Shown one piece after another: positions 15,983 through 28,238 of a stretch of DNA of 29,867 nt. This DNA comes from Dehalococcoidia bacterium (GTDB lineage Bacteria; Chloroflexota; Dehalococcoidia; GIF9; AB-539-J10): positions 1-29,867 of the forward strand of contig JAUWGN010000001.1 of assembly GCA_030606385.1 (NCBI GenBank), given 5' to 3'. How positions within the stretch are numbered: the first letter of the stretch is position 1; each line of letters begins with the position of its first letter. The notes beneath the pieces were generated by a model that was not told the DNA's origin, did no database searches, and saw nothing but the letters and a program-made list of their open reading frames with translations. The position numbers and the translations under genes were made by a program.

Positions 15983-17063
15983 TGTCAACCTCAACCGTTC
16001 CGTTGAAGGGCTGCGTGTTCTGGAAGATGTTGCCCGTTTTGTTCTTAATGACGCTACACTAAGCCAGCAGTTAAGAAGCACTCGTCACAGTCTTGCCGAA
16101 GTCGGTGAGTCTCTGGGCATAATTCTTCTTGAGGAACGGGACTCGGAACACGATGTTGGCAGAGAAAATGTCATTGCCAGGCCCCCCTCTGTCATTGCGA
16201 GCCGAAGGCGAAGCAATCTCAACAAGCAGTCCTACCCTGATTTAGCCAGCCTGGTCGGAGCAAATGCTAACAGGGTGGAGGAATCTCTGCGCGTATTGGA
16301 GGAATTGGCTAAACTGGATGAACTGAGCTCCAAGCTCGATGCTGCCAAGTTTGAGAAAGTGAGGTTCTGCCTCTATTCGGTGGAAAAAGAGATGGTTTCC
16401 AGACTAACGCGGCAGGATAAGCTGAAGGAGTTGACTGGGCTTTATGTTATCGTCGATAGGCAAGTTCTGGGTGGCAGGGACGAATTGGAGGTAGCTCGAG
16501 AGGTTATTCAGGGAGGGGCCAAGGTTATCCAGCTCCGTGACAAGCAAAGGAGTATGGTGGAACTATTGCCCGTTGCTGAGAGGCTTAAGGAGCTATGCCT
16601 GAAGGCGGGGATTTTATTCATCATCAATGATTATTTGGATTTAGCACTGGCAGTCGATGCTGATGGTCTCCATATTGGCTACGGAGATCTGCCGGTTCAT
16701 GTTGCCAGGAGAGAATTGCCGGCGGCTAAAATAATTGGTAGCTCGGTTACCACGGTATCACGGGCAATCGAGGTGGGGGATGAAGGGGCGGATTACATTT
16801 CTGTGGGCTCGATGTTCCCTACGGAGAGCAAGGAAGGGGCTATTGTCGTCGGCCTGGATATTCTCAAGCAGGTGGGGGAGGCAGTATCCTCACCAGTGGT
16901 GGCTATCGGCGGCATTGATAAAAGCAATGTTGGTGAGGTAATTGCTGCTGGTGCTGATTGTGTTGCTGTGATTAGTGCTGTGTTAAGCACGCCAGATGTC
17001 AAAAAAGCCACCAAAGGGTTGGTTAGCGAGATAAGGAAGGCAAGGAGAAAATGCCAGGGTTAG
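15954..17063 (+). CDS. thiE: Thiamine-phosphate synthase with N-terminal ThiD2 domain
   Basis: ThiD2-type D.NLNR..EGLRVLED and N..RVEESLRVLEE, followed by the TMP synthase motifs QLRDK, INDY.DLA.AVDADGLHIG, FPTESK and VAIGGI. Confidence 0.93.
   Translation: MPHQPLRIVDVNLNRSVEGLRVLEDVARFVLNDATLSQQLRSTRHSLAEVGESLGIILLEERDSEHDVGRENVIARPPSVIASRRRSNLNKQSYPDLASLVGANANRVEESLRVLEELAKLDELSSKLDAAKFEKVRFCLYSVEKEMVSRLTRQDKLKELTGLYVIVDRQVLGGRDELEVAREVIQGGAKVIQLRDKQRSMVELLPVAERLKELCLKAGILFIINDYLDLALAVDADGLHIGYGDLPVHVARRELPAAKIIGSSVTTVSRAIEVGDEGADYISVGSMFPTESKEGAIVVGLDILKQVGEAVSSPVVAIGGIDKSNVGEVIAAGADCVAVISAVLSTPDVKKATKGLVSEIRKARRKCQG
16191..16220 (+). repeat. REP-like palindromic element (GTCATTGCGAG...GCAATCTC family) inserted in frame in thiE
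   Basis: gtcattgcgagccgaaggcgaagcaatctc has the same termini as the intergenic element at 28109-28162. It is exactly 10 codons (VIASRRRSNL). Confidence 0.75.
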
Positions 17064-17674
17064 GGGAGGAGCTAGGAGCTATCGCTGAAGAAATCCACGC
17101 CTATTTCACCGCTGAGGATGAAGCCAGGGAGAAGGCTTTGCGCCTCTGCCGCCAGATAATTCGCAATAGCGCCAATGCTATAAGGGCTGTTCATCGTCAG
17201 GAGCAGGATAAGGCAAGGCAAATTCTTGACTCAACTTACAAATTGGTTCAGGAGATAAATGGTAGCCTCAATGACCATCCCGGTTTGCTTCATTCGGGAT
17301 TCGTTCATGATGCCCAGAAGGAATTCGCCGAAGGGAGCATCACCTTCGCTTTGATCGTTGGGAAAGAACTCCCCAAAGCTGAGGCAATAGGCGTTGATTA
17401 TGCCGCATATCTCAATGGGCTTGGTGAAGCGGTGGGTGAATTAAGGCGCTACTTACTGGATAGCATGAGGAGAGGGGATTTCTCTCGCTGTGAGGAGTTG
17501 CTCGGTGCCATGGACGATATTTATGGCACATTGATGACTATGGATTTCACTGAAATCATCACGCATGGTTTGAGGCGGACCACGGATGCGATTCGTGGTG
17601 TCATCGAGAGGACTCGCGGCGATGTGACCATGGCTTTGCGGCAAAAGGAGCTGGAAGCAAAGCTGGGCAAATAG
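17051..17674 (+). CDS. Translin/TRAX(C3PO)-like protein
   Basis: RE.ALRLCR.IIR.SA.AIRAVHR, DAQKEFAEG, YLNGLGEAVGELRR and LRR..D..R...ERTRGD motifs of the prokaryotic translin family. Confidence 0.85.
   Translation: MPGLGEELGAIAEEIHAYFTAEDEAREKALRLCRQIIRNSANAIRAVHRQEQDKARQILDSTYKLVQEINGSLNDHPGLLHSGFVHDAQKEFAEGSITFALIVGKELPKAEAIGVDYAAYLNGLGEAVGELRRYLLDSMRRGDFSRCEELLGAMDDIYGTLMTMDFTEIITHGLRRTTDAIRGVIERTRGDVTMALRQKELEAKLGK
17657..17673. repeat. 17-bp perfect direct repeat R (second copy 21099-21115)
   Basis: gcaaagctgggcaaata is identical at both positions. Copy 1 is the 3' end of the translin gene. Confidence 0.85.
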
Positions 17675-17747
17675 TGAATATTTATTCTATAAGGGTGTTT
17701 ATCAATTGAGGATGGTTTGAAGGAAAGAGGGATATAAGGAGGTAGTT

Positions 17748-18266
17748 ATGAAAAACTCGCGGGATGCTGTATTAGAAAGAGCGTTTGAGTCTGCCCGCAA
17801 ATACGAGATGAAGTGTACCGGGTGTGCCCAGACGACCCTTGCTGGCATCTTCGATGCCTTGGATATTGAAAACGATGATGTGTTCCGAAGTGCAAGTGGG
17901 CTGGCAGACGGATTGGGCTTAACAGGGGACGGTTCGTGCGGCGCCCTGGTTGGCGGCGCAATGGCAATCAGTTACCTCTTTGGCAGGGAAAAGAAGGACT
18001 TTTCCGACATGTTAAAACCCATGAGGTCATATATGATGGTCAAGAAGCTTCATGATAGATTTGTTGAACAATATGGGTCATGCCGATGCTATGACATCCA
18101 GAAGCGCCTCATGGGCAGGACTTTTAATCTATATGATCCATCAGAGCTGGAAAAAGCCATTGAGGCTGAGATGTTTGCTCATTGCTCAAAGGTTGCTGGT
18201 ACCGCTGCCAGGCTGGCTACAGAGCTAATACTGGAAGAGATGGAGCGCCAAAAAGCCGAGAAATGA
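17748..18266 (+). CDS. C_GCAxxG_C_C family putative redox-active protein
   Basis: GCAQ..L, GLADGLG..G..CGALVGG, F...YGSCRC.DI and C-terminal C.K motifs. Strong SD. Confidence 0.88.
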   Translation: MKNSRDAVLERAFESARKYEMKCTGCAQTTLAGIFDALDIENDDVFRSASGLADGLGLTGDGSCGALVGGAMAISYLFGREKKDFSDMLKPMRSYMMVKKLHDRFVEQYGSCRCYDIQKRLMGRTFNLYDPSELEKAIEAEMFAHCSKVAGTAARLATELILEEMERQKAEK

Positions 18267-18280
18267 GGGTGTTTAAAAAC

Positions 18281-18330
18281 GTAGTTGCCCAATTTATTGG
18301 GCAAATGCGCCTGATGAATCAGGCAACTAC
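18281..18330. repeat. GTAG...CTAC REP-like palindrome, copy 1 (copy 2 at 28175-28224)
   Basis: 48/50 identical to copy 2. Outer inverted repeat GTAGTTGCC/GGCAACTAC with inner hairpins TGCCCAAT-TT-ATTGGGCA and GCCTGAT-GA-ATCAGGC. Confidence 0.92.
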
Positions 18331-18428
18331 AGAAATTTGGAGGTGAAGAATTTCCGGGGTAGTCAAGACAAATCTGAATCCAAAGCTAGAGCAAGATTAA
18401 ACAGCCGAGAAATAATAAGGAGGTAGCT

Positions 18429-19208
18429 ATGACTCAAGATGTATGGAAGGCGAAAGAAGAGCAATTGAATAGGTATGTAAGGCTGGATACATTCCCTTTG
18501 GGTGTGAACTTCCTGAAAAAGGGAGATGCATTCCCGGAAAAGACAGGGACACCTTCAAGTATGGGGATAAAGATTGCCCTGTGTCAGGCAACAAATATTG
18601 CCAGGAGGTGGGGATGGTCTATGGGGGTGACAAAAGATGACATAAATTGTATCCCGGCACTCATGGGCTTTGGGTGGAGGGAGCCTGAAACCCCGGCCGC
18701 AGTAGTAGATTTCCTTATGAGCATGGGTTATTTTGAGACAAAAGAAGCTGCTATAAAAACCCTTGAGAAAATGATCATAATGGAGCCAGGGCGATTTGAA
18801 CGGCTCTATATCTCCCCCCTTTCAAGGACGAAGCTTGAGCCAGATGTAGTGGTCATATATGGCAATCCGGCACAAATGATGAGACTTGCTCAAGGCTATA
18901 TCTACAGAAAGGGCGGCGTTGTTACCTCTGAGACAAACCTGGGGTTTACCTGCGCAAACGAGATGATATGGCCATTGAAAGAAGGAAAGGCCTGTTTTAT
19001 TCATCCTGGCAGGGGTGAAAGGGTGCTCGGGCTTACACAGGACCACGAGATGGCGTTTAGTCTACCGGCATCTCAGGTGGATGACTTAATAGCAGGACTT
19101 GAGGCAACCCATAAGGGAGGCTCACGCTACCCTGTTCAGAGTTATCTGTTATTTGAGCCCATGCAGATCCCGCAGTTTGAAGAGCTTGAAAAACACCTGA
19201 AGCCCTAG
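18429..19208 (+). CDS. DUF169-family protein
   Basis: PLGVNFLK, ALCQA..IARRWG, D.NC..A...FG, PL.....PDVV.IYGNPAQMMRL.Q and PG.GER..G.TQD.EM.F..P motifs. Confidence 0.85.
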   Translation: MTQDVWKAKEEQLNRYVRLDTFPLGVNFLKKGDAFPEKTGTPSSMGIKIALCQATNIARRWGWSMGVTKDDINCIPALMGFGWREPETPAAVVDFLMSMGYFETKEAAIKTLEKMIIMEPGRFERLYISPLSRTKLEPDVVVIYGNPAQMMRLAQGYIYRKGGVVTSETNLGFTCANEMIWPLKEGKACFIHPGRGERVLGLTQDHEMAFSLPASQVDDLIAGLEATHKGGSRYPVQSYLLFEPMQIPQFEELEKHLKP

Positions 19209-19292
19209 GGGCCTTTTTATCGAATTTGTTCCCATGTTGTTAAGGAAAAGCCGAAGTCAAGCAAAAAAAGACGAGAAGGGAGGTGATGTATC

Positions 19293-20762
19293 ATGCCATT
19301 GAAAACCCCTGCAGAGTATATCGAGAGTCTGCGTAAGCTGAAACTGGACCTCTATCTACTTGGTGAAAAGGTGGAGAATTGGGTTGATAATCCTATTATC
19401 AGACCATCAATCAACGCTGTGGCAATGACCTACAAGCTTGCTCACGAGCCCAAGAACAAGGAGCTGGCAACCACGGATTCGATGCTTACAGGAAAGAAGG
19501 TAAACAGATTTAACTCTCTCTTCACGAGCACCGGTGATATGGTCAGTAAGGTAAGATTACAGAGGGAGCTGGGACAAAGGACAGCCTGTTGTTTCCAGAG
19601 GTGCGTTGGTCTTGACGGGATCAATGCTGTTTTTAGTACCACCCACGAAATTGACCAGGAGCACGGAACCAAGTATCACCACAGGTTTAGAGAGTGGCTG
19701 AAGTATGTTCAACAGAATGACCTCTGTGTCCAGGGTGCCATGACCGATGCCAAGGGCAACCGGGTGGTGGCTCCAAGCAAGCAGACTGACCCAGACATGT
19801 TTGTGCATGTGGTAGAGCGAAGGAGTGATGGAATCATCATAAGGGGGGCAAAAGCAAGTCAAACGGGAACCGTGAATTCACATGAAATGCTCATTATGCC
19901 AACCCTGAGAATGCGGGACGGCGATGAGGATTATTCACTAAGCTGTGCTATACCAACGGACGCTGAAGGCGTACACCTCATCTATGGAAGACAGTCCTGT
20001 GATACGCGCAAGCTTGAGGATGGTGACATCGATGTCGGCAACTACAGCTTCGGTGGACAGGAGACACTGACTATCCTGGACAACGTCTTTGTCCCGTGGG
20101 ATAGGGTTTTCATGTGCGGGGAGCTCGAATTTGCCATTATGATGGTGGAGAGATTCGCCGCTTATCATAGACAGAGCTACGGCGGTTGTAAGCCGGGCAT
20201 AGGTGATGTGCTTATTGGGGCGGCGGCCTCAATGGCTGATTACAACGGGACACGCAGAGCCCCGCACATCAGAGAGAAGCTCGGGGAGATGATTCACCTC
20301 GCTGAAACGATACATGCCTGCGGATTAGCCTGCGCCTACGAGGGGTGGCAGACTATGTCTGGCAACTACCAGTCCAACATCCTTTTAGCCAATGTATGTA
20401 AGCACAATGTGACGAGGTTTCCCTACGAGCTTTGCAGGCTTGCCGAGGACATAGCCGGCGGTATTCTGGTAACGCTGCCCTCCGAAAAAGACTTCAGGCA
20501 CCCTGTGATGGGCAAATATATCGATAAATACCTGAAGGGAGTACCTGATGTACCTACAGAGCACCGAATCCGTATGTTGACGCTCATCCACGCCATGACT
20601 TTTGGCCAAATAGCTCCCAGTTATCGCACAGAGTCGCTACATGGAGCAGGCTCGCCTCAGGCACAGAAAATTATGATTGAGCGCGAGACGGATATGGACC
20701 TCAAACAGAGGCTCGCCCGCAGTTTGGCTGGCATCGACAAAAGGGAAAACGTGACTGCTTAG
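19293..20762 (+). CDS. abfD: 4-hydroxybutyryl-CoA dehydratase / vinylacetyl-CoA isomerase
   Basis: CFQRCVGLD (two Fe-S Cys), HRQSYGGCK (His and Cys ligands), MTDAKG.R, RGAK and ESLHGAGSPQAQK motifs. Confidence 0.85.
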   Translation: MPLKTPAEYIESLRKLKLDLYLLGEKVENWVDNPIIRPSINAVAMTYKLAHEPKNKELATTDSMLTGKKVNRFNSLFTSTGDMVSKVRLQRELGQRTACCFQRCVGLDGINAVFSTTHEIDQEHGTKYHHRFREWLKYVQQNDLCVQGAMTDAKGNRVVAPSKQTDPDMFVHVVERRSDGIIIRGAKASQTGTVNSHEMLIMPTLRMRDGDEDYSLSCAIPTDAEGVHLIYGRQSCDTRKLEDGDIDVGNYSFGGQETLTILDNVFVPWDRVFMCGELEFAIMMVERFAAYHRQSYGGCKPGIGDVLIGAAASMADYNGTRRAPHIREKLGEMIHLAETIHACGLACAYEGWQTMSGNYQSNILLANVCKHNVTRFPYELCRLAEDIAGGILVTLPSEKDFRHPVMGKYIDKYLKGVPDVPTEHRIRMLTLIHAMTFGQIAPSYRTESLHGAGSPQAQKIMIERETDMDLKQRLARSLAGIDKRENVTA

Positions 20763-20769
20763 TTTCCAT

Positions 20770-21042
20770 ATGAACAAACATATCGAAGAGAAATTCAGTT
20801 GGCTCTGGAAAAAGTATTTCGACGGTGCGGAACTTCCGGTTACTTTCTACTATACCAACGAAGAAGGACATGCTAAGCTGGTCGAGCCCGGCTCAGTACC
20901 AGGATGTGTGGTTGAGGCATTAAATGTACTCACATTCTCAGTACCTATGAACAAGTTTGTCAGGATGATTGAGAATATGGAGGAGAGTTTCCTTATCACA
21001 GACTCGTGGCTCAGGATACGGAAAAGGATAAAATCCGCTTGA
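20770..21042 (+). pseudogene. Internally deleted DUF169-like gene (N- and C-termini joined in frame, 90 aa)
   Basis: The N-terminus (KF..LWKKYF.GAELP.TFYYT...C) and C-terminus (VLTFSVPM.KF.RM.ENMEESFLIT.SW) match the ends of a recalled ~260-aa DUF169-related family. The middle is missing. Confidence 0.65.
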
Positions 21043-21098
21043 ACGAAAGTCCGTATTGTTTGGCTAGCTCTGCTGAGCTTCTTCTTGCTAGCGAAGAG

Positions 21099-21115
21099 GC
21101 AAAGCTGGGCAAATA
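21099..21115. repeat. 17-bp direct repeat R, copy 2
   Basis: Identical to 17657-17673 and abutting repeat X1. Confidence 0.85.
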
Positions 21116-21176
21116 CTCTTAAGAGCAAATTTCAGCAAGCGGCGATAAAGCTTCCCAAGCTTGAACAAAATAGCCG
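21114..21176. repeat. 63-bp imperfect direct repeat X, copy 1 (copy 2 at 22501-22563)
   Basis: Ungapped alignment, 53/63 identical. The copies flank the MFS gene. Confidence 0.9.
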
Positions 21177-21240
21177 TTCGTTACCATAAAGGAATCTCAA
21201 AGAGGAGTATGGGCTATCTTACGAAATTAAGGTACAGAGG

Positions 21241-22464
21241 ATGGTAGAGCAGAAATGGGCATACAGGCGACATATGCTTGTCTATTTTTGCTTGATAGCT
21301 TGCTTTCTTAATGGCTTAAACATAGGTGTGGTGCCTCCTCTGTTGCCTGAGATTGCTGCTGAATTAAGTTTGACACATACCCAGATAGGAATCATCTGGG
21401 GCGCATGGTTTCTAGGGATGATGCTATTCTCGCTTGTAGGCGGCGCTATGGCCGATCGCTTTGGAGTGAAAAGAGTAATAGCGGGTGCGCTTATTTTTTC
21501 AGCCGTATTCTGTGCTCTGCGCGGCTTTATGCCCGGCTTCCAGGGATTGACGGTGGCTATGTTCCTTTTCGGTGCATCTCTGGCTTTCATCGTGCCTAAT
21601 CTAACAAAGGGTATTGGCATGTGGTTCGGTAGAACGGAGCTAGGACGGGCTAATGGAATACTTAGCATATCAGTTGGCGTGGGTCTGGTTCTTGGGAATA
21701 TGATGGGTGCCTCGGTGCTATCCCCGCTCCTTGGTGGCTGGAGACCAACGATGTGGTTAACCGGGGCTATTGCTGCGGTGCTTTTCATCATGTGGATTGC
21801 AGGGGCTAGAGAGCGACCGGTCGAGGAAATAGCGGGTGAAGGTGCAGCACGTCAACCGGGAACCTGGGAGGGCTTGAAGAAGGTCGTCAGGATTAAGGAC
21901 CTCTGGTTTGTATGTTTAATGGAATTCTGCCTGGTCGGTGGCGCTCTTGCTTTCCAGGGCTTTCTCCCGACCATGCTAGTTGAAAAAGGGATGACTGCTG
22001 CAAGGGCTGGGCTTCTTCTTGGATTCACCCTGATGAGCAGCGGTGTCTTTAGTGTCGTGGGGCCATCTCTGTCGGATAGGCTCGGTGTCAGGAAGCCCTT
22101 TGTGTGGCCTTTTTTGCTGCTAAGCAGCGTAGGTATGTCCCTGGTAACCTTTTTTATGGGTAGACCCTTGATTGCTGTGCTGATTTTGTTCGCTGTGGGT
22201 GTAGGAGTCGCCATTCCCCTGTTAAGAACCATAGTGTTGGAAATGGAGGGTATCGGTCCCCTTCATACGGGCTCTGCGCTCGGGCTGATTTTCGTGCTAA
22301 ACCGTCTTGGCGCATTTATCCTGCCCGTCGTCATGGGGGCGGTCATAGACTTTAGCCATTTGTTTTGGCCCGGATTCCTGTTGCTCGGAGTATTGAACCT
22401 TGTAGCTGTGAGACTGTGTTTAGCGATAAAGGAAACGGGGCTGCGCGCTAAGCGAGTTTCCTGA
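21241..22464 (+). CDS. Major facilitator superfamily transporter
   Basis: About 12 hydrophobic segments, motif A twice (GAMADRFGVKR, SLSDRLGVRK) and WF...ELGRANG. Confidence 0.93.
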   Translation: MVEQKWAYRRHMLVYFCLIACFLNGLNIGVVPPLLPEIAAELSLTHTQIGIIWGAWFLGMMLFSLVGGAMADRFGVKRVIAGALIFSAVFCALRGFMPGFQGLTVAMFLFGASLAFIVPNLTKGIGMWFGRTELGRANGILSISVGVGLVLGNMMGASVLSPLLGGWRPTMWLTGAIAAVLFIMWIAGARERPVEEIAGEGAARQPGTWEGLKKVVRIKDLWFVCLMEFCLVGGALAFQGFLPTMLVEKGMTAARAGLLLGFTLMSSGVFSVVGPSLSDRLGVRKPFVWPFLLLSSVGMSLVTFFMGRPLIAVLILFAVGVGVAIPLLRTIVLEMEGIGPLHTGSALGLIFVLNRLGAFILPVVMGAVIDFSHLFWPGFLLLGVLNLVAVRLCLAIKETGLRAKRVS

Positions 22465-22500
22465 ACCGAAGACAATAGGGTTGCTTGCGCAGTGAGCACC

Positions 22501-22563
22501 TATTCTTAATACCAAACTTCGGCAAGCGACGATAAAGCTTCCCAAGCCTGAACAAGATGGCGG
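22501..22563. repeat. 63-bp direct repeat X, copy 2
   Basis: 53/63 identical to 21114-21176 and 12 nt upstream of repeat Y1. Confidence 0.9.
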
Positions 22564-22575
22564 ATTGTGCAATCC

Positions 22576-22694
22576 CATGGGTGACTTTCCTTGAGTATTA
22601 TAGAGGAGGCCCATCACTGTGACGGCATCAAGACTACCTACGATGGGTGGAAGTATGTTTTAATGTATAGAAGTATCAACTTTGAAGGAGCGAT
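22576..22694. repeat. 119-bp direct repeat Y, copy 1 (duplicate of the rplY upstream region)
   Basis: Ungapped, 113/119 identical to 23882-24000, with the last 77 nt identical. It includes TATTAT and the SD GAAGGAG. Confidence 0.95.
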
Positions 22695-22782
22695 GACGGA
22701 TGAGAATGGCCTCACCGCAAATTGAAATGGGAAATCCCGCCTAAATTGTTACCTTCAATTCCATTCTAGAAAGGAGAAATCC

Positions 22783-23619
22783 ATGAATTTCGAGCAATTG
22801 CTATACGAGGAGAAGCACCGAGTGGCATTTGTCACACTGAACCGACCAGAAGTCTTTAATGCCTTGAGCATGAAGCTTTCAGATGAGCTTGTTGCTGCCA
22901 TAGAAATGGTGCGTGAATCTACTGTCGTGAAAATTCTGGTGATTAAAGGTGCTGGAGACAACTTTTGCGTTGGCGATGACATTACAGAAATGCCGATGTG
23001 GGGCGACGCCAACAGTGTAATGCGCCGTGCTCGATACTACCAGAACATGGCTAACCAGCTTGAAGAGCTGGACAAAATAACCATAGCCGCAGTGGACGGC
23101 TACGCGGTAGGGGGCGGTCTTGAGATTACCATGGCATGCGATTTTGTCATTGCCACAGAACGAGCTCGCTGGGGGATGCCGGAAGTAGATGTCGGAATTA
23201 CCCCTGGTTGGGGTGGGACCACCCGTCTTGCCCGCTTAATCGGCAGGCGTATGGCCAAAGAGATCAATATGCTGGGTGCACTTCACCGGGCAAAGAAGGC
23301 AGTCGAATTGACTCTCTGGAATAGGGTGGTGCCAAATGACCGTTTAGAGGTTGAGTTGGACCGATTATTGCAGGTACTGCGGTCGAAGAACCAGCAAGGA
23401 CTGCGGCAACTGAAGTTCATAATCAATAAGGGAGTGGAATGTGACCTGTATACTGCCCAGGGCTTTGAAGCGTTGTCTGCTGCACTTACGGGCGCTGTCA
23501 GTGGACTGTGGGAAATAGAGGATGCTGACAAAGGTGCGGGTGTTGTGGGGTTCACTGAGAAAGACAGCCTTTGGCAAACCCGACGACGCTTGGCGAGAGA
23601 TTTTTGGGTTGACAAATAA
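22783..23619 (+). CDS. Enoyl-CoA hydratase/isomerase (crotonase) family protein
   Basis: VTLNRPEVFNALS, FCVGDDI, IAAVDGYAVGGGLEI..ACDF and GMPEVDVGITPGWGGT.RL.RLIG motifs. Confidence 0.93.
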   Translation: MNFEQLLYEEKHRVAFVTLNRPEVFNALSMKLSDELVAAIEMVRESTVVKILVIKGAGDNFCVGDDITEMPMWGDANSVMRRARYYQNMANQLEELDKITIAAVDGYAVGGGLEITMACDFVIATERARWGMPEVDVGITPGWGGTTRLARLIGRRMAKEINMLGALHRAKKAVELTLWNRVVPNDRLEVELDRLLQVLRSKNQQGLRQLKFIINKGVECDLYTAQGFEALSAALTGAVSGLWEIEDADKGAGVVGFTEKDSLWQTRRRLARDFWVDK

Positions 23620-23826
23620 TCTATGCATTCCCACATAGCAGGAACTTCGTCTTGGACAAGAGGAGGATAGAAGGATAGAGGTTTGCATATTAACATCGGA
23701 CAAATCAGTGCAAGAATCACAAGTTGGGGGGGTAAGTCGATTGAGGAGTACATTACTGACTTAGAAGGACCGCAAGGGCGCGAACCAAGGCGGCCAACAT
23801 GAGGTCGTTGAGCCCTCAGATTATCG

Positions 23827-23848
23827 GAGCCGTTGGAGCGGCTCTTTT
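23827..23848 (+). terminator. Possible intrinsic terminator
   Basis: GAGCCG-ttggag-CGGCTC followed by TTTT. The U-tract is short. Confidence 0.4.
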
Positions 23849-23881
23849 CGCTACTGACAAAGCCAGAAAGCTCCGCAGCCT

Positions 23882-24000
23882 CATGGGTGACTTTCCCTGA
23901 GTATTATAGGCGAGTCCCGTCATTGTGACGGCATCAAGACTACCTACGATGGGTGGAAGTATGTTTTAATGTATAGAAGTATCAACTTTGAAGGAGCGAT
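23882..24000 (+). repeat. 119-bp direct repeat Y, copy 2 (native rplY promoter/leader)
   Basis: Immediately upstream of the rplY ATG (24004). It contains the hairpin CCGTCA-ttg-TGACGG (23917-23931). Confidence 0.95.
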
Positions 24001-24003
24001 TGG

Positions 24004-24639
24004 ATGGACCAGATAGAGTTAGATGTTACTAAGCGGGAGATTCTGGGTAAGAAAGTGAGGTTTTTGCGTCGGCAGGGGATTACCCCGGTGCATCTTTTTG
24101 GGCATGGTATCGAATCACAGGCATTGCAATGTGATACTGCCAGGCTTCAGCAGGTGTTAGCTGAGGCAGGGAAGACGAAGCTAATCAATTTCAAGATCGA
24201 TGGTGAAAAGAAGGCGAGGTCCGTTATAGTTCGTGAAGTTGAGATAGAGCTGCCAAGACGTGGATTGGTGCATGTAGATTTTTATCAGGTAAGAAAGGCG
24301 GAAGAAGTGAAGGTAGAAGTTCCTGTTGTTTTAGTTGGGGAAGCGCCAGCGTTGAAGTTAAGGGAGAATACGCTACTGCAAGAGCTCGACACCTTGAGCG
24401 TTGAGTGCCTTCCGGCCAATATTCCTGCGAGTGTAGAACTAGACATCAGTTCCCTCACCGAGTCAGAGCAAGTGCTGCGGGTGAAGGATATTGAGCTGGA
24501 GAAGGGGGTTACCGTTCTTAATGACCCGGAAGTGGTAGTGGCGAAGATTAGTGCGCGACGTGTAGAGGAGGTAGTAGAAGAAGCGGTTGAAGCTCCCGAA
24601 GAAGCCCCGCCACCTGAAGAGGAGTCCAGGGAGGAATAA
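24004..24639 (+). CDS. rplY: 50S ribosomal protein L25 / general stress protein Ctc
   Basis: LRRQGITP.HLFGHG, VHVDFYQV, VEVPVVLVGEA, LSVECLPANIP..VELDISSL motifs and an acidic tail. Confidence 0.96.
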   Translation: MDQIELDVTKREILGKKVRFLRRQGITPVHLFGHGIESQALQCDTARLQQVLAEAGKTKLINFKIDGEKKARSVIVREVEIELPRRGLVHVDFYQVRKAEEVKVEVPVVLVGEAPALKLRENTLLQELDTLSVECLPANIPASVELDISSLTESEQVLRVKDIELEKGVTVLNDPEVVVAKISARRVEEVVEEAVEAPEEAPPPEEESREE

Positions 24640-25724
24640 TGATAAAGACGAAGCTCTGTGAGTTATTGGGGATAGAATATCCCATAATACAAGCAGGCAT
24701 GGGACCATTTCAAACGCAGAAACTGGCTGAAGCAGTGGCAAATGCTGGGGCACTCGGGATTATCAGCACCAGTGGCATCATTTTCGGTAGTTTAGGAATA
24801 GATTTAGGTCCCCTGACGGCAGGAAAGGGTGGCTCATACGATACGGTAACAAAGTACATCCGCGAGGTAGGTAAAGGCACAAGAAAAAAGGGAGCAACCT
24901 TTGGAATAAACGTTATGGTATCGGCTGAGCTTGGCGCGCCGGCAATGGAGTTTGTCCGAGCGGCAGTCAATGCGCGGGACGAGGACCCCGATATAAGGGA
25001 AGGACTCAAAGTGATAATCACTTCAGCGGGCGACCCTTTGCCCTGGACCGATGTGATAAAGTCAAGCGGGCTCAAATGGTTTCACGTTGTTCCTTCAGTT
25101 CGTCACGCCAAAAGGGCTGAAAAAGCTGGGGTAGATGCGGTAATCGCTTCAGGGCATGAGGGTGGAGGGCACGTAGCCTGGGAGCCAGTTCATACAATGG
25201 CTATTCTTCCTTCAGTGGTCAACGCCGTGGATGTGCCTGTGATTGGGGCCGGTGGATTTTGTGATGGAGCAACGCTCGCCGCAGCTCTTGCTTTAGGAGC
25301 CGTAGGGATTCAGATGGGTACCAGATTCATTGGTACAAAAGAGGCCGATACCTGTTTTGGGGACATATGGAAGAATCGGCTTTTGAAAACCGATGATCGA
25401 AGCACAATAGTAGCGAGAGGCTTTGTTGGTCCTTTAAGGTATCTGAGAAATGAAGCATCTGTTCAACTTGCCAAACTCACGGTTGAGAAAGTTCCCGATT
25501 TGTTTGTGGGTCACCCTGATATAACCCTGGACCAGGCTCTTCTTGCCACGGAACTGGAAGGACATAAGGCTCTGGCAGGACAGAATGATGAGAAGGCACT
25601 TTTTTACGGAGGAGAAGTGGCAGGAAGAATACAGGATATTCCAAGTGTGAAGGAACTTATAGAAAGAATGGTGGAGGAGGCGGAGGATATAATAAAAGAG
25701 TTACCCGGGAAGGTTATCGTTTAA
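24639..25724 (+). CDS. Nitronate monooxygenase / FabK-like FMN-dependent oxidoreductase
   Basis: KTKLCELLGIEYPIIQAGM, ASGHEGGGH, VPVIGAGG..DG..LAAALALGA.GIQMGTRF and GEVAGRI motifs. TAATG overlap with rplY. Confidence 0.9.
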   Translation: MIKTKLCELLGIEYPIIQAGMGPFQTQKLAEAVANAGALGIISTSGIIFGSLGIDLGPLTAGKGGSYDTVTKYIREVGKGTRKKGATFGINVMVSAELGAPAMEFVRAAVNARDEDPDIREGLKVIITSAGDPLPWTDVIKSSGLKWFHVVPSVRHAKRAEKAGVDAVIASGHEGGGHVAWEPVHTMAILPSVVNAVDVPVIGAGGFCDGATLAAALALGAVGIQMGTRFIGTKEADTCFGDIWKNRLLKTDDRSTIVARGFVGPLRYLRNEASVQLAKLTVEKVPDLFVGHPDITLDQALLATELEGHKALAGQNDEKALFYGGEVAGRIQDIPSVKELIERMVEEAEDIIKELPGKVIV

Positions 25725-25839
25725 CGGGTTACTGGCTCCGCAGGATGCAAAGCGTCCTGGAGAGGCTGCAAAGCTGACAGATGGGCCGATGGGAAGTAAA
25801 ATTAGCGTGTTCAGCCTATCAAGATAAGGAGGAACAACC

Positions 25840-27273
25840 ATGGCGAAATTGGACGACTTAGCTTTTCTCGATGCTACTGCCCAGGCTGAGCTGGTGCGGC
25901 GAAAGGAGGTAAAGCCGGTTGAACTCGTGGACGCCGCCATCGAGCGGATCAAGCGGCTGAATCCCACCCTTAATGCAGTGGTCACGCCAATGTATGAACA
26001 GGCGCGCACGGCGGCCAGTGGTGAACTGCCCCAAGGGCCCTTTACCGGCGTGCCCTTCCTGCTCAAGGACCTGTTGGCCTCTTACGCTGGGGTGCGGATG
26101 ACCTTGGGGGCGACCTTTTTGCATGACTTCGTGCCCGACCACGACAGTGAACTGGTCACACGGCTGAAGCGCGCCGGGCTGATTATCATCGGTAAGACCA
26201 ACACACCGGAGTTCGGCCTCATGCCGACCACCGAGCCCCGTCTGTTTGGTTCCAGCCACAACCCCTGGGACGTAAGCCGGACAACGGGCGGCTCCAGCGG
26301 GGGCTCGGCCGCCGCTGTGGCCGCTGGCCTGGTTCCCATGGCACACGGCAACGACGGCGGCGGGTCAATCCGCATTCCGGCCTCCTGTTGTGGGCTCTTC
26401 GGCCTCAAGCCCACCCGAGCGCGCAATCCGCTCGGCCCTGATTATGGCGACATCTTTAGTGGACTGGTGGTTGAGCACGCCCTCACCCGCTCGGTGAGGG
26501 ACAGTGCCGCCCTGCTTGATGCCACGTCGGGGCCCGACGTGGGCGACCCATACTGGGTACCACCCCCGGTGCGCCCCTTTCTACAGGAGGTAGGCGCCGA
26601 CCCCGGGCGGCTCCGCATTGCTTTTACCACCACAGCGGTCACCGGTGTCCCGGTGCACAGCGACTGCGTCAGCGCGGTGCGTGATGCAGCGCAGTTGTGC
26701 ACCGACCTCGGCCATGAGGTAGTAGAGGCAGCCCCGGAAGTGCCTGGTGACTTGGTGGCCCAGATGTTCGTGACCTTGTGGTCGGCGGGGTGTGCCTGGA
26801 CCATAGACGGCATGGCCTTTCTAACCGGCCGGGCCGCTACCCCGGACCAGTTCGAACCGCTCACTTGGGCTCTATGTGAAATGGGGCGACAGCAAAGCGC
26901 ATCGGACTATCTGCTCGCCGTGGCGATGCTCCAGAGGGTGTCCCGTGACATCGGGCATTCCTTCGACAATTACGATGTGTGGCTCACCCCGACCCTCAGC
27001 GAGCCACCTGTGCCCCTCGGCACCTTCGACTCTCCGCCGGAGAACTCCTTGCAGGGGCTGACCCGTGCGGCGGAGTTCATACCCTTCACGCCGATCTGCA
27101 ACGTGACCGGGCAGCCCGCCATGTCGCTGCCGCTATTCTGGAATGCCGATGGCCTGCCAGTGGGCACCCACTTCATCGGGCGCTTCGGCGACGAGGCAAC
27201 TCTCTTCCGCCTTGCAGCGCAGCTTGAGGCAGCTCGGCCATGGGCCAGCCGCCATCCGCCAGTATCAGCCTGA
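25840..27273 (+). CDS. Amidase-signature family hydrolase (high GC)
   Basis: [31 protein letters not shown] and [25 protein letters not shown] motifs (Ser-cisSer-Lys triad). Confidence 0.96.
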
Positions 27274-27389
27274 GCGACCTATGCCGGGTGCGCTTAATTG
27301 CTACGAGGATTGCATCCTCTTTGCCGCGGGAGTTTACGCTCTGGTATTGCTGGTTAGAAACTGGGAAACCATTGGAGGGAGACAAAGAG

Positions 27390-27908
27390 ATGGGTAATCT
27401 GTTATCTCAGAAATGGAGAAATATCCTCTGGAGCACGCTTATGACTATCCTGTGTATTGTCTGTTTTCCGTTTAATCCTCTCATCCTGACAGGTGTTATA
27501 GAAGTAGAATCATACCCGGCATTATTCATCATCGGTTGGGTGGTATGGGCATTCGGTATGGTGCTGGTTATGGCTCCCATAGTCGTTTTCCCACGACGTG
27601 GTGGGGTTCCCAAAGGTAAATCATTTGTAAATACTACCCGTCTCGTTGATACAGGGATATATGCAATCGTTAGGCATCCGCAATACACAGGTGGAATCTA
27701 CGCAATTTTCCTAACCACCTTTTTATGGTATCCGCACTGGCTATTCGGGGTGCTCGGGGTGGTAGGCACTGCAGTCGTTTATATGAGTTGTAGAGAGGAA
27801 GACCAACGCCTAATCGAGAAGTTCGGTGATAATTATAGAGCCTATATGAAAAGGGTGCCTAGAATGAATTTCGTTTTGGGACTTATGAGGCTAGTACACC
27901 AGAAGTGA
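27390..27908 (+). CDS. Isoprenylcysteine carboxyl methyltransferase / PEMT-like membrane methyltransferase
   Basis: LVDTGIYAIVRHPQYTG and EE..L..KFG..Y..Y...VPR motifs. ATG 27390 has SD GGAGG; the longer 27240 ORF overlaps the amidase. Confidence 0.9.
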   Translation: MGNLLSQKWRNILWSTLMTILCIVCFPFNPLILTGVIEVESYPALFIIGWVVWAFGMVLVMAPIVVFPRRGGVPKGKSFVNTTRLVDTGIYAIVRHPQYTGGIYAIFLTTFLWYPHWLFGVLGVVGTAVVYMSCREEDQRLIEKFGDNYRAYMKRVPRMNFVLGLMRLVHQK

Positions 27909-28174
27909 AATCAGCAATTGTAAGTAAAAGCTTATTTAATATCTACCTGAGCTAAGATCACTGCACATTTTAGCGGGTTGTTCAATGTCACCTGGTACCT
28001 ATCCCCCCAAAGCTGCGCACATTGATCTAGTTCAGATAGATAGGTGACACTTCGAAGTATGGAGTTACCTCTCATCTTGGGTTTGAACAAGCTCTGGCAG
28101 TCCGTTGTGTCATTGCGAGGCACGGGGTTCCTCGTTTTACTCGAAACAGTCTCCGCAATCTCAAGTTTAAAAAT

Positions 28175-28224
28175 GTAGTTGCCCAATTTATTGGGCAATT
28201 GTGCCTGATGAATCAGGCAACTAC
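28175..28224. repeat. GTAG...CTAC REP-like palindrome, copy 2
   Basis: 48/50 identical to 18281-18330. The preceding GTTTAAAAA is also shared. Confidence 0.92.
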
Positions 28225-28238
28225 AAAATCCGGAGCTA

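Follow-up and report, generated by a model that had tools for sequence, protein, structure and literature searches.

We analyzed a stretch of 29,867 nt (hereafter, the window), which is the entire contig C26 (JAUWGN010000001.1) of G000, a metagenome-assembled genome (MAG) of the Dehalococcoidales (Dehalococcoidia bacterium, GCA_030606385.1; 1.02 Mb in 151 contigs, 61% complete). We focused on the interval between a translin-family gene and rplY, where blocks of genes are stacked between duplicated pieces of the intergenic spacer. Pfam identified, in order, ThiD2-ThiE, the translin family, C_GCAxxG_C_C, DUF169, the HpaB/AbfD family, a 90-aa open reading frame (ORF), MFS_1, ECH_1, L25/TL5, and NMO (Table 1), in agreement with the gene calls of a preliminary description of this DNA that was made from the sequence alone. 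The order thiE-translin is kept across the family. The gene dnaA is located at 11.6-12.1 kb and the cumulative GC-skew minimum lies near 11 kb, which places the translin-rplY locus on the leading strand, at a distance of 6-13 kb from oriC. Genomes of this genus range from 1.0 to 1.7 Mb, and the sequence is present in metagenome runs from cold seeps, marine sediments, and vents. We compared the window to ~40 related contigs and genomes, comprising congeners (G001-G007), a member of another genus (G024), and L-numbered contigs that are mostly metagenomic (e.g., from the Joint Genome Institute, JGI). The metagenome contigs were retrieved via three anchors (the MFS transporter gene, the crotonase gene, and rplY); exact-protein look-ups for the rplY, MFS, and translin proteins of the window yielded short contigs only.

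The preliminary description had reported three pairs of direct repeats in the interval, and a search of the window for repeats recovered all of them in place. The R pair is identical at 19 of 20 positions and includes the perfect match (17/17) first noticed; the X pair (21106-21181 and 22493-22568) is 80% identical over 76 nt; and the Y pair (22569-22694 and 23875-24000) is 93% identical over 126 nt, or 95% over the 119-nt core that had been described. Within the window, the last 77 nt of the two Y copies (Y1 and Y2) are identical. The second R copy repeats the 3' end of translin, the target gene, in direct orientation at the far border of the inserted DNA. These repeats are not chance matches, as had been argued for R from its expected frequency: in relatives, the similarity of R-type copies to the translin tail extends over 35-55 nt, and none of 300 shuffles scored as high. 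The longer copies of this tail match at 40/47 positions in L211, 46/55 in G007, and 36/42 in G004.

Table 1. Features of the translin-rplY interval and its borders (positions in the window).
Feature	Position	Strand	Description
Translin-family gene	17051-17674	+	PF01997, 28 bits versus a cut-off of 25.9; with thiE, the conserved left border
R1	17654-17673	+	Final 20 nt of translin; original of the R repeats
C_GCAxxG_C_C gene	17748-18266	+	Pfam
DUF169 gene	18429-19208	+	Pfam
AbfD/HpaB-family gene (abfD)	19293-20762	+	Pfam
DUF169'	20770-21042	+	90-aa ORF; DUF169 paralogue with an in-frame deletion of 480 nt
a-b	21043-21095	+	Conserved segment with a terminator-like hairpin; precedes R in type-1 copies
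R2	21096-21115	+	Displaced copy of the translin tail, reads EAKLGKYS*; 19/20 to R1
X1	21106-21186	+	Upstream X copy; its 3' end runs into the MFS leader
MFS transporter gene	21241-22464	+	Pfam; between X1 and X2
X2	22493-22568	+	Downstream X copy
Y1	22569-22705	+	Copy of the rplY promoter, leader, Shine-Dalgarno sequence, and first codons; precedes the crotonase gene
14-codon micro-ORF	22700-22744	+	Starts at the copied rplY start codon; read from the sequence
Enoyl-CoA hydratase (crotonase, ECH) gene	22783-23619	+	Pfam
d	23620-23874	+	Tail of the crotonase block, 255 nt; its final letters, GCAGCCTC, are also those with which Y starts
Y2	23875-24011	+	Native rplY promoter and leader
rplY (L25/TL5/Ctc)	24004-24639	+	Pfam; right border of the variable interval

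Junction alignments revealed that nearly all blocks are bracketed by overlapping copies of a ~0.3-kb spacer. Judged from these alignments, the flanks are overlapping pieces of a single noncoding unit, a-b-R-X-Y. The pieces are contiguous, as the preliminary description had supposed: a-b-R-X, followed by a weak start of Y, is uninterrupted at one site of a congener (G004:C25), and the stretch from a-b to the end of X and Y lies directly upstream of rplY in G004 and L203. The a-b segment, with a terminator-like match at 21058-21078, is kept in the copies of G004 (3 sites), G002, G003, G007, G021, L203, and L222. However, R-X was found not to be unique to the spacer, since the congeners carry it in unrelated contexts. 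The X core is present in 2-4 copies per genome in G002, G003, and G004, and the other R-X sites lie behind a methyltransferase gene, a tyrosine decarboxylase gene, and an amino-acid permease gene or between a histidine kinase gene and a MarR gene. With the exception of one possibly mis-binned contig (G021:C58), we did not find the X core in the 53 searched genomes of 18 other genera of the family. Dispersal of X and Y over the genome would have counted against the preliminary description; in the 61%-complete MAG itself, each occurs exactly twice, and additional X copies are found in the congeners. We also rejected the idea that X is a high-copy repetitive extragenic palindromic (REP) element or a miniature inverted-repeat transposable element, considering its 2-4 copies per genome and its restriction to the genus and one contig binned elsewhere. 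An Rfam scan of positions 17000-25000 (E<=1) yielded no family, which indicates that X and Y are not known RNAs. Y1 and Y2 folded as RNA presented no excess stability, such that a structured leader is not supported, and a candidate stem in X presented no compensatory changes across an alignment of ~16 X copies. Finally, we dropped as a candidate a small ORF that extends DUF169' in frame past its TGA and across a-b-R-X, the insertion of a HicAB module splitting it in many strains.

The copies of R-X located elsewhere allow for a different view of the unit. It is conceivable, but in our judgment unlikely, that a-b-R-X-Y is a portable landing pad present at 2-4 loci per genome and forming an integrase-free analogue of the integron platform. 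It is similarly doubtful that such a pad would capture promoterless blocks of 0.7-7.5 kb by short-homology recombination and that these blocks would excise as circles and move between strains and pads. We give equally little weight to the proposal that the pad would provide its blocks with a terminator in front and with a ribosomal-protein promoter.

The layout of the window is found in several independent assemblies. The JGI contig L210 presents the same order, DUF169'-R-X-MFS-X2-Y-ECH-d-Y-rplY-NMO, and the segment MFS-X2-Y1-ECH was also found on four further JGI contigs. In addition, Logan contigs of the probable source run bridge positions 20071-22647 and 22618-23953 with 0-1 differences, although these k=31 contigs cannot order the two Y copies nor resolve their 77-nt identical part. 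The stacked layout might instead have arisen during metagenome assembly, if sequences of different strains or loci had been wrongly connected at the repeats. Indeed, the window comes from a fragmented and incomplete MAG, the repeats are long enough to mislead short k-mers, and variants co-occur within the same samples. Yet each junction consists of unique sequence that is found in several independent assemblies (L210, L187-L190, L185/186, and L212), and the Logan contigs cross the region as well. We therefore consider an assembly artefact, which would have undone the preliminary description, to be extremely improbable.

Across relatives, the translin-rplY interval is a multi-allelic hotspot that varies between strains. 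Its length ranges from 5.3 to 45 kb among related contigs and genomes, and its content is modular. The general form can be written as thiE-translin-C_GCAxxG-DUF169-[abfD-DUF169']-a-b-R-[HicAB]-X-MFS-[X2]-[GGDEF(-)-GH3(-)]-Y-[ECH-d-Y]-rplY, where brackets denote segments that are present in some of the contigs. Six of the eight possible combinations of the HicAB, GGDEF-GH3, and ECH blocks were observed, and further variants carry cyclase, glycine-cleavage, or extracytoplasmic-function (ECF) sigma factor genes. Minor alleles co-occur within the same samples. The shortest form (L223, a contig of 158 kb, and also L204) consists of translin..abfD-deleted DUF169'-HicAB-MFS-Y-rplY. In L201 and L188-L190, a cyclase gene replaces Y2-rplY. 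Among species representatives, the arrangement abfD-DUF169'-R-X-MFS-X2 is common to G004 and G007 only.

These alleles bear out the prediction that relatives would carry different sets of cargo and, more broadly, the claim that blocks are flanked by duplicates of successive spacer pieces, a pattern that is more general than the window alone reveals. The expected proximity of translin to X-Y-rplY was recovered in part: at least 12 metagenome contigs link translin and rplY within 5.3-12.2 kb, whereas rplY lies 45 kb from translin in G003 (99% complete; same strand, with the same landmarks in the same order across the 45 kb), and G004 (98% complete) has it in inverted orientation at a distance of 155 kb. 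We observed in G004 a fragment of the C-terminal part of a tyrosine integrase (G004:C17:72628-72765, within L049) located 1.3 kb upstream of rplY, near a helix-turn-helix gene. This fragment may be the trace of an element or of a rearrangement that split the interval. The empty form translin-R-X-Y-rplY was not found in any relative; C_GCAxxG-DUF169 follows translin in all relatives seen.

The block C_GCAxxG-DUF169 (1.5 kb) is flanked by the translin tail. It was found behind translin in all seven congeners, in G024, and on 10 metagenome contigs; all relatives seen are filled and no empty site was found among them. It is the oldest block behind translin and at least as old as the genus. The second block, abfD-DUF169'-a-b, spans ~1.8 kb in the window and ~2.3 kb with a full-length DUF169'. 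This block is present in the window, G004, G007, and most contigs and missing from L211, in which DUF169 is followed by the 47-nt copy of the translin tail, then by X and MFS. The preliminary description had treated both blocks as one module. Because C_GCAxxG-DUF169 is fixed in the genus while abfD-DUF169' is absent from L211, this module must be divided into two events of different age. The broader idea that the events differ in age fits the distribution of the blocks: Y/ECH is limited to some strains, X is genus-wide, and the R event is at least genus-old. In G003, the abfD block was found at another R-X site, behind the methyltransferase gene, with ~25-nt repeats of b as flanks. In G021:C58, an ECF sigma factor gene and two DUF5667 genes occupy the place of abfD.

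The in-frame deletion in DUF169' was defined relative to the 250-aa form found in G004 and most contigs, and no microhomology was found at its ends. The end points of the deletion are identical in the window, L204, and L223-L224 despite their different sets of blocks, which suggests that this allele either recombined between backgrounds or is old.

The remaining blocks are mostly polymorphic. HicAB (0.68 kb) is a typical mobile toxin-antitoxin pair. It is flanked by the translin tail and downstream sequence (29/35 and 46/55), is present in G007, G002, L200, L204-207, and L213, and is absent from the window, G004, L202/203, and others. Joining the ends of this insert rebuilds the complete translin tail and its downstream sequence. 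As for the proposal that translin originally ended in EAKLGKYS*, this reading is indeed visible at R2, but the KYS* ending reflects a natural ...GKY* allele, found in G005, combined with an 11-nt difference from the site filled with HicAB. The MFS block (1.4 kb) is flanked by X1 and X2 (76 nt, 80%); all contigs retrieved with the MFS query are filled, as expected from this sampling bias, and no empty site was found at the locus. In G002, the X..X bracket holds MFS and three further genes. X2 is missing in the co-occurring strains L202, L204, L208, and L212, and a minor joint (22480>22565) was detected in two other runs. GGDEF-GH3 (5.3 kb) is flanked by a ~35-nt repeat of the end of X and the start of Y (~80%); it is present in G007, L202, L203, L205-209, L212, L213, and L185/186 and absent from the window, L204, L210, L200, and L201. 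The 12-nt contiguity of X2 and Y1 in the window, which had been taken as ancestral spacer, is therefore corrected to an allele lacking the 5.3-kb GGDEF-GH3 block. The block ECH-d (1.3 kb) is flanked by Y over 126-140 nt, including the start codon of rplY and two codons. It was found in the window, L210, L212, L185-192, L200, and L201, with empty sites in G004, G007, L202-207, and L213.

Two more blocks were identified in a lineage represented by L222 and G021:C58, whose order is DUF169'-a-b-R-X-[358-aa gene]-a'b'-Y 5' half-[radical SAM, LplA, Lpd, GcvP/H/T, 7.5 kb]-Y-rplY. The 358-aa gene is flanked by copies of a-b in both contigs. The glycine-cleavage cluster (7.5 kb) is flanked by the 5' half of Y on one side and by a complete Y on the other, and it is present in L222 and in the L220 lineage. 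GcvT was not found in G000, G003, G004, and G007 and is single-copy in G021, which indicates that the cluster is accessory cargo. We noticed that G021:C58 (L216), although binned in another genus, carries a-b-R-X and a DUF169' that is 95.6% identical to that of G004. The contig L222, from an NCBI MAG (GCA_054772735.1), presents the same layout. G021:C58 may thus represent either mis-binning or a recent transfer of the whole locus. Altogether, the polymorphic blocks (HicAB, GGDEF-GH3, ECH, the 358-aa gene, and glycine-cleavage) are bracketed by duplicates of the spacer, and a single copy is left where the block is absent, as the preliminary description had implied for its three modules.

It could be argued that functional spacer pieces were duplicated long ago and that the variants of today are deletions from one long ancestral array. 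The pieces do resemble functional sequences: a-b is terminator-like, Y holds the promoter-leader of rplY, and the 3' end of X runs into the MFS leader. The conserved landmarks over 45 kb in G003 would also be expected, and the X2-Y1 join of the window is precisely the product expected from a deletion of GGDEF-GH3 between the X-end/Y-start repeats. The nature of the cargo points the other way. The genus lacks an orthologue of the crotonase, whose nearest relatives outside its own cluster (~81% aa) bear labels of Asgard archaea and other phyla; searches of the other genomes did not recover GcvT; and HicAB pairs are typically mobile. Moreover, Y1 and Y2 are still 93-95% identical, which points to a recent duplication, and alternative blocks occupy the same slot (abfD versus ECF sigma/DUF5667). 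Differential loss as a general explanation consequently appears improbable to us.

The crotonase block offers the most detailed view of a single insertion. No orthologue of the crotonase was found in the seven congeners (best match 38%). The protein belongs to a cluster of 93-99% identity found in many sediment metagenomes, and its next relatives, at ~81% aa identity, are labelled as Hel-, Hermod-, Hod-, and Promethearchaeota (Asgard archaea), Chloroflexi, and Thermodesulfobacteriota, according to database labels rather than to a tree. This suggests that the gene may move widely among sediment anaerobes, across domains. A copy with 94.7% nucleotide identity was found in another context, where it is accompanied by an old-yellow-enzyme gene in opposite orientation, by a downstream GH31 gene, and, 5 kb away, by an integrase gene; the match covers positions 22743-23629 only. 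The junctions Y1|ECH and d|Y2 are identical in all ECH-bearing contigs, which indicates that the insertion happened once. The d|Y2 join occurs at an 8-nt microhomology, GCAGCCTC, with which d ends and Y begins. Instead of Y2, the cyclase gene and its promoter follow this d in L188-L190 and L201; no other copy of this tail was found in the genus. We also noted a small putative ORF (23799-23900) extending from d into Y2 and encoding a 33-aa hydrophobic peptide (MRSLSPQIIGAVGAALFATDKARKL...). In the cyclase variant, this ORF ends four codons sooner, as RSLA*.

Y is present as a single copy upstream of rplY in G002, G003, G004, G006, and G007. The match of Y1 to the region upstream of rplY in G007 continues to position 22705, and the crotonase gene thus sits behind a full copy of the rplY promoter-leader and start codon. 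Only the window has identical 3' 77 nt in Y1 and Y2, whereas the copies differ from one another in the other ECH-bearing contigs. Both copies of the window carry the allele 'acctacgat', which is otherwise found in the rplY-proximal copies of strains without ECH. This identity and the shared allele indicate that gene conversion occurred between the Y copies and that recombination acts on the repeats.

The microhomology at the d|Y2 join is also compatible with template switching, as in models of fork stalling and template switching (FoSTeS) or microhomology-mediated break-induced replication (MMBIR). A fork stalled in the spacer would copy a block elsewhere and return upstream of its point of departure, such that the insertion and the duplication would arise in one step. 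The variable length of the duplicated targets (20-140 nt), the absence of a recombinase, and the position of the site, close to the origin and next to a highly expressed gene, are all in line with such a process. However, the nearest source context of the crotonase was found in another organism, and G021 has only one copy of the glycine-cleavage cluster, which a search of four congeners did not recover, so that the templates would have to be foreign DNA present during replication. Nor would switching alone explain the reshuffling of alleles. We thus consider this mechanism unlikely.

We then consider the marks of known mobile elements. Phage_integrase (PF00589) matches in G000 were confined to contigs C83, C5, and C92, with none on the window contig, and Resolvase (PF00239) was not matched in G000, G002, G004, and G007, with one match on an unrelated contig of G003. 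In the relatives, none of the genes that we could identify within the fetched parts of the interval (~40 contigs) is a recombinase. ARAGORN found no tRNA or tmRNA in the window. Single-stranded DNA folds of a-b-R-X1 and of X2 with the start of Y, computed for both strands, had z-scores of -0.44 to +0.92 relative to shuffled sequences and thus no attC-like fold. These results uphold the preliminary description, which had seen neither an integrase nor an attC motif. No pair of inverted repeats was found at the module boundaries and no transposase among the genes identified, and the duplications vary in length from 20 to 140 nt, as opposed to the short target duplications of fixed length left by transposons. 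An att core common to all boundaries is absent, as a-b, R, X, X-end/Y-start, or Y is used instead. Alignments of the flanks, which are direct repeats, revealed no shared 28-bp motif, although no search with a dif model for Dehalococcoidia was made. One joint (21164>23874, run X14) was examined as a possible circle or excision joint and set aside, as it is equally explained by the X-Y junction of a divergent strain.

For the R-bounded blocks, the strongest rival is site-specific accretion, in which these blocks would be decayed integrative or cis-mobilisable elements at the 3' end of translin, with a tyrosine or serine recombinase encoded elsewhere and a-b-R-X acting as an attP- or attR-like arm. 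The core of 17-20 nt is exact between unrelated arms (R1 and R2 of the window; 20/20 at G004:C25), and the conserved element-side arm a-b lies next to the core at five loci at least, which parallels the motif upstream of ssrA repeats (PMC3146451). The tail rebuilt by joining the HicAB ends, the displaced translin tail behind DUF169 in L211, which resembles a classical attR, and the integrase fragment upstream of rplY in G004 would also agree with this view, and ssrA islands without integration modules are known (PMC3146451). On the other hand, neither the window contig nor the interval in any of the ~40 contigs was found to carry a recombinase gene, and the nearly complete G004 has no Resolvase-domain gene. 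The target is neither a tRNA nor a tmRNA gene. In addition, the other blocks are flanked by differing sequences of 35-140 nt (X, X-end/Y-start, Y, and a-b), for which one att core is insufficient. Site-specific accretion therefore seems an unlikely account.

Overall, we lean, with somewhat better than even confidence, toward insertion-duplication without a recombinase, either of the Campbell type or by homology-facilitated illegitimate recombination, after which homologous exchange would have reshuffled the blocks between strains; the step that formed the blocks is inferred. The bracketing repeats are different pieces of the spacer instead of one core, as expected if homology drove the joining but not if a single att site were used. 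The lack of a cis recombinase, tRNA/tmRNA, attC fold, or Rfam family and the presence of five boundary sequences likewise favor this explanation. The ~0.3-kb spacer in front of rplY, with a-b, R, X, and Y, would repeatedly receive DNA blocks of 0.7-7.5 kb, and each insertion would duplicate the stretch of spacer around its entry point, leaving overlapping pieces on both sides of the block. This could occur through a circularised fragment that carries a piece of the spacer and enters by a single crossover (Campbell type). Alternatively, DNA of a sister strain could be anchored by homology on one side and joined at a microhomology on the other. A bracketed block could later be lost by recombination between its own repeats. 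Blocks would also pass between strains by homologous recombination, the spacer pieces serving as portable homology and generating mixed sets of cargo. All of these steps could rely on the general recombination of the host, with no dedicated recombinase; the existence of circles, the enzymes at work, and the direction in which each event went are presumptive. Whatever the route of entry, the history of the locus includes deletions and probably exchanges between strains.

Several observations weigh against insertion-duplication. No circle, excision product, or recombination intermediate was observed, in runs available as k=31 contigs that are blind to the 77-nt identical part of Y. Several blocks fit an insertion or a deletion between pre-existing repeats alike. 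The R core is exact over 17-20 nt between unrelated flanks (window, G004:C25), which is more like an att core than like decayed homology. The left edge of the abfD block in the window has only an 11-nt repeat (9/11), with R-X on the right, and the empty site of L211 differs by a 33-nt replacement. Furthermore, the combinations found on metagenome contigs may be strain chimeras at shared repeats, such that free assortment is possibly overstated, and the MFS-anchored retrieval skews the sample toward MFS-bearing alleles.

In Campbell-type integration, a circle that contains part of the target enters by one crossover and ends up between direct copies of this part; the process is reversible and needs no dedicated recombinase. 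Most of what is known of insertion-duplication and of homology-facilitated illegitimate recombination comes from transformation experiments and laboratory constructs. To our knowledge, natural stacks of several Campbell-type events in one spacer have rarely been described. The inserts of the translin-rplY interval are likewise bracketed by direct copies of the target, although no circle was seen. Integron arrays also consist of small promoterless cassettes, including toxin-antitoxin pairs, in one orientation behind a resident promoter and with a content that varies between strains. In contrast, the present locus has no intI and no attC hairpins, and its repeats are copies of the target, not sites borne by the cassettes. 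The pdif modules of Acinetobacter plasmids are small, lack a recombinase, often carry toxin-antitoxin pairs, and are shuffled by host enzymes at inverted 28-bp Xer sites; here, the repeats are direct, and their alignments revealed no common 28-bp motif.

The closest parallels were found in Dehalococcoides, of the same class, whose ssrA islands are stacked in tandem with direct repeats of ~20 nt from the 3' end of the target, some of them without integration genes (PMC3146451), and whose high-plasticity regions flank the origin (PMC2764846). The translin-rplY interval is also a strain-variable region flanking the origin of a small genome, with tandem stacking, a gene-tail repeat, and missing integration genes. 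Unlike in the ssrA islands, the target is the tail of a protein-coding gene, translin, which provides the repeat, and an intergenic spacer instead of a tmRNA or tRNA gene; overlapping pieces of the spacer take the place of one att core; the blocks measure 0.7-7.5 kb; and no DsiB-type serine recombinase or integrase was found in the present locus. The additive flexible genomic islands of marine bacteria such as Alteromonas likewise carry differing combinations of cassettes at the same site, with a direct repeat of the target downstream of the cassette, and these cassettes flow independently of the core phylogeny (PMC4898812). Different combinations of cassettes were equally observed at the same site among strains here, but the additive islands are located mostly at tRNA/tmRNA genes or integrons and involve site-directed or illegitimate recombination (PMC4898812), whereas the present site is a ribosomal-protein promoter region with repeats of up to 140 nt. 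Repeat-bracketed stacking without an integrase is a real route of gene gain and loss, but one with precedents.

The genomes of Dehalococcoidia are small and streamlined and contain few classical mobile elements, yet they present strong differences between strains near the origin, of which this locus offers a legible record: a single spacer has taken up six or more independent blocks, all of which left a footprint and most of which have a natural empty allele, with no recombinase in cis. The cargo includes a toxin-antitoxin pair at one extreme and an entire glycine-cleavage cluster at the other, as well as a crotonase with Asgard-labelled relatives. If general recombination over tens to ~100 bases of homology is indeed responsible, the bar for gene capture would be low in uncultured sediment bacteria, and this process would explain part of their accessory genome. 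The newly acquired crotonase gene is preceded by a copied ribosomal-protein promoter, from which it is predicted to be expressed. The repeats and junctions constitute concrete targets for tests for circles in cold-seep samples with several co-occurring alleles.

The surroundings of the interval are variable as well. Downstream of rplY-NMO, a 65%-GC block (25736-27987) with an amidase gene (25840-27273) stands out in a ~48%-GC genome. It is missing in G004, L220, and L222, is present in most close metagenome variants, and was probably acquired horizontally. The right flank of rplY consists of NMO in most contigs and of DUF7670 and a pyridine-nucleotide oxidoreductase gene in L223-L226 (e.g., L223 10733-12581), which indicates that the plastic zone reaches past rplY. 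Finally, a palindromic REP-like element of ~89 nt (GTAGTTGCCCAAT...CAGGCAACTAC) was found at 18265-18353 and 28165-28228 of the window. This element is polymorphic between C_GCAxxG and DUF169, with positions 18263-18407 of the window missing in G004 and G007; it lies between translin and C_GCAxxG in G003 and upstream of rplY in L220. In metagenomes, the word depth of the element is 20-80x that of its flanks, which suggests that it is a high-copy element of the community.

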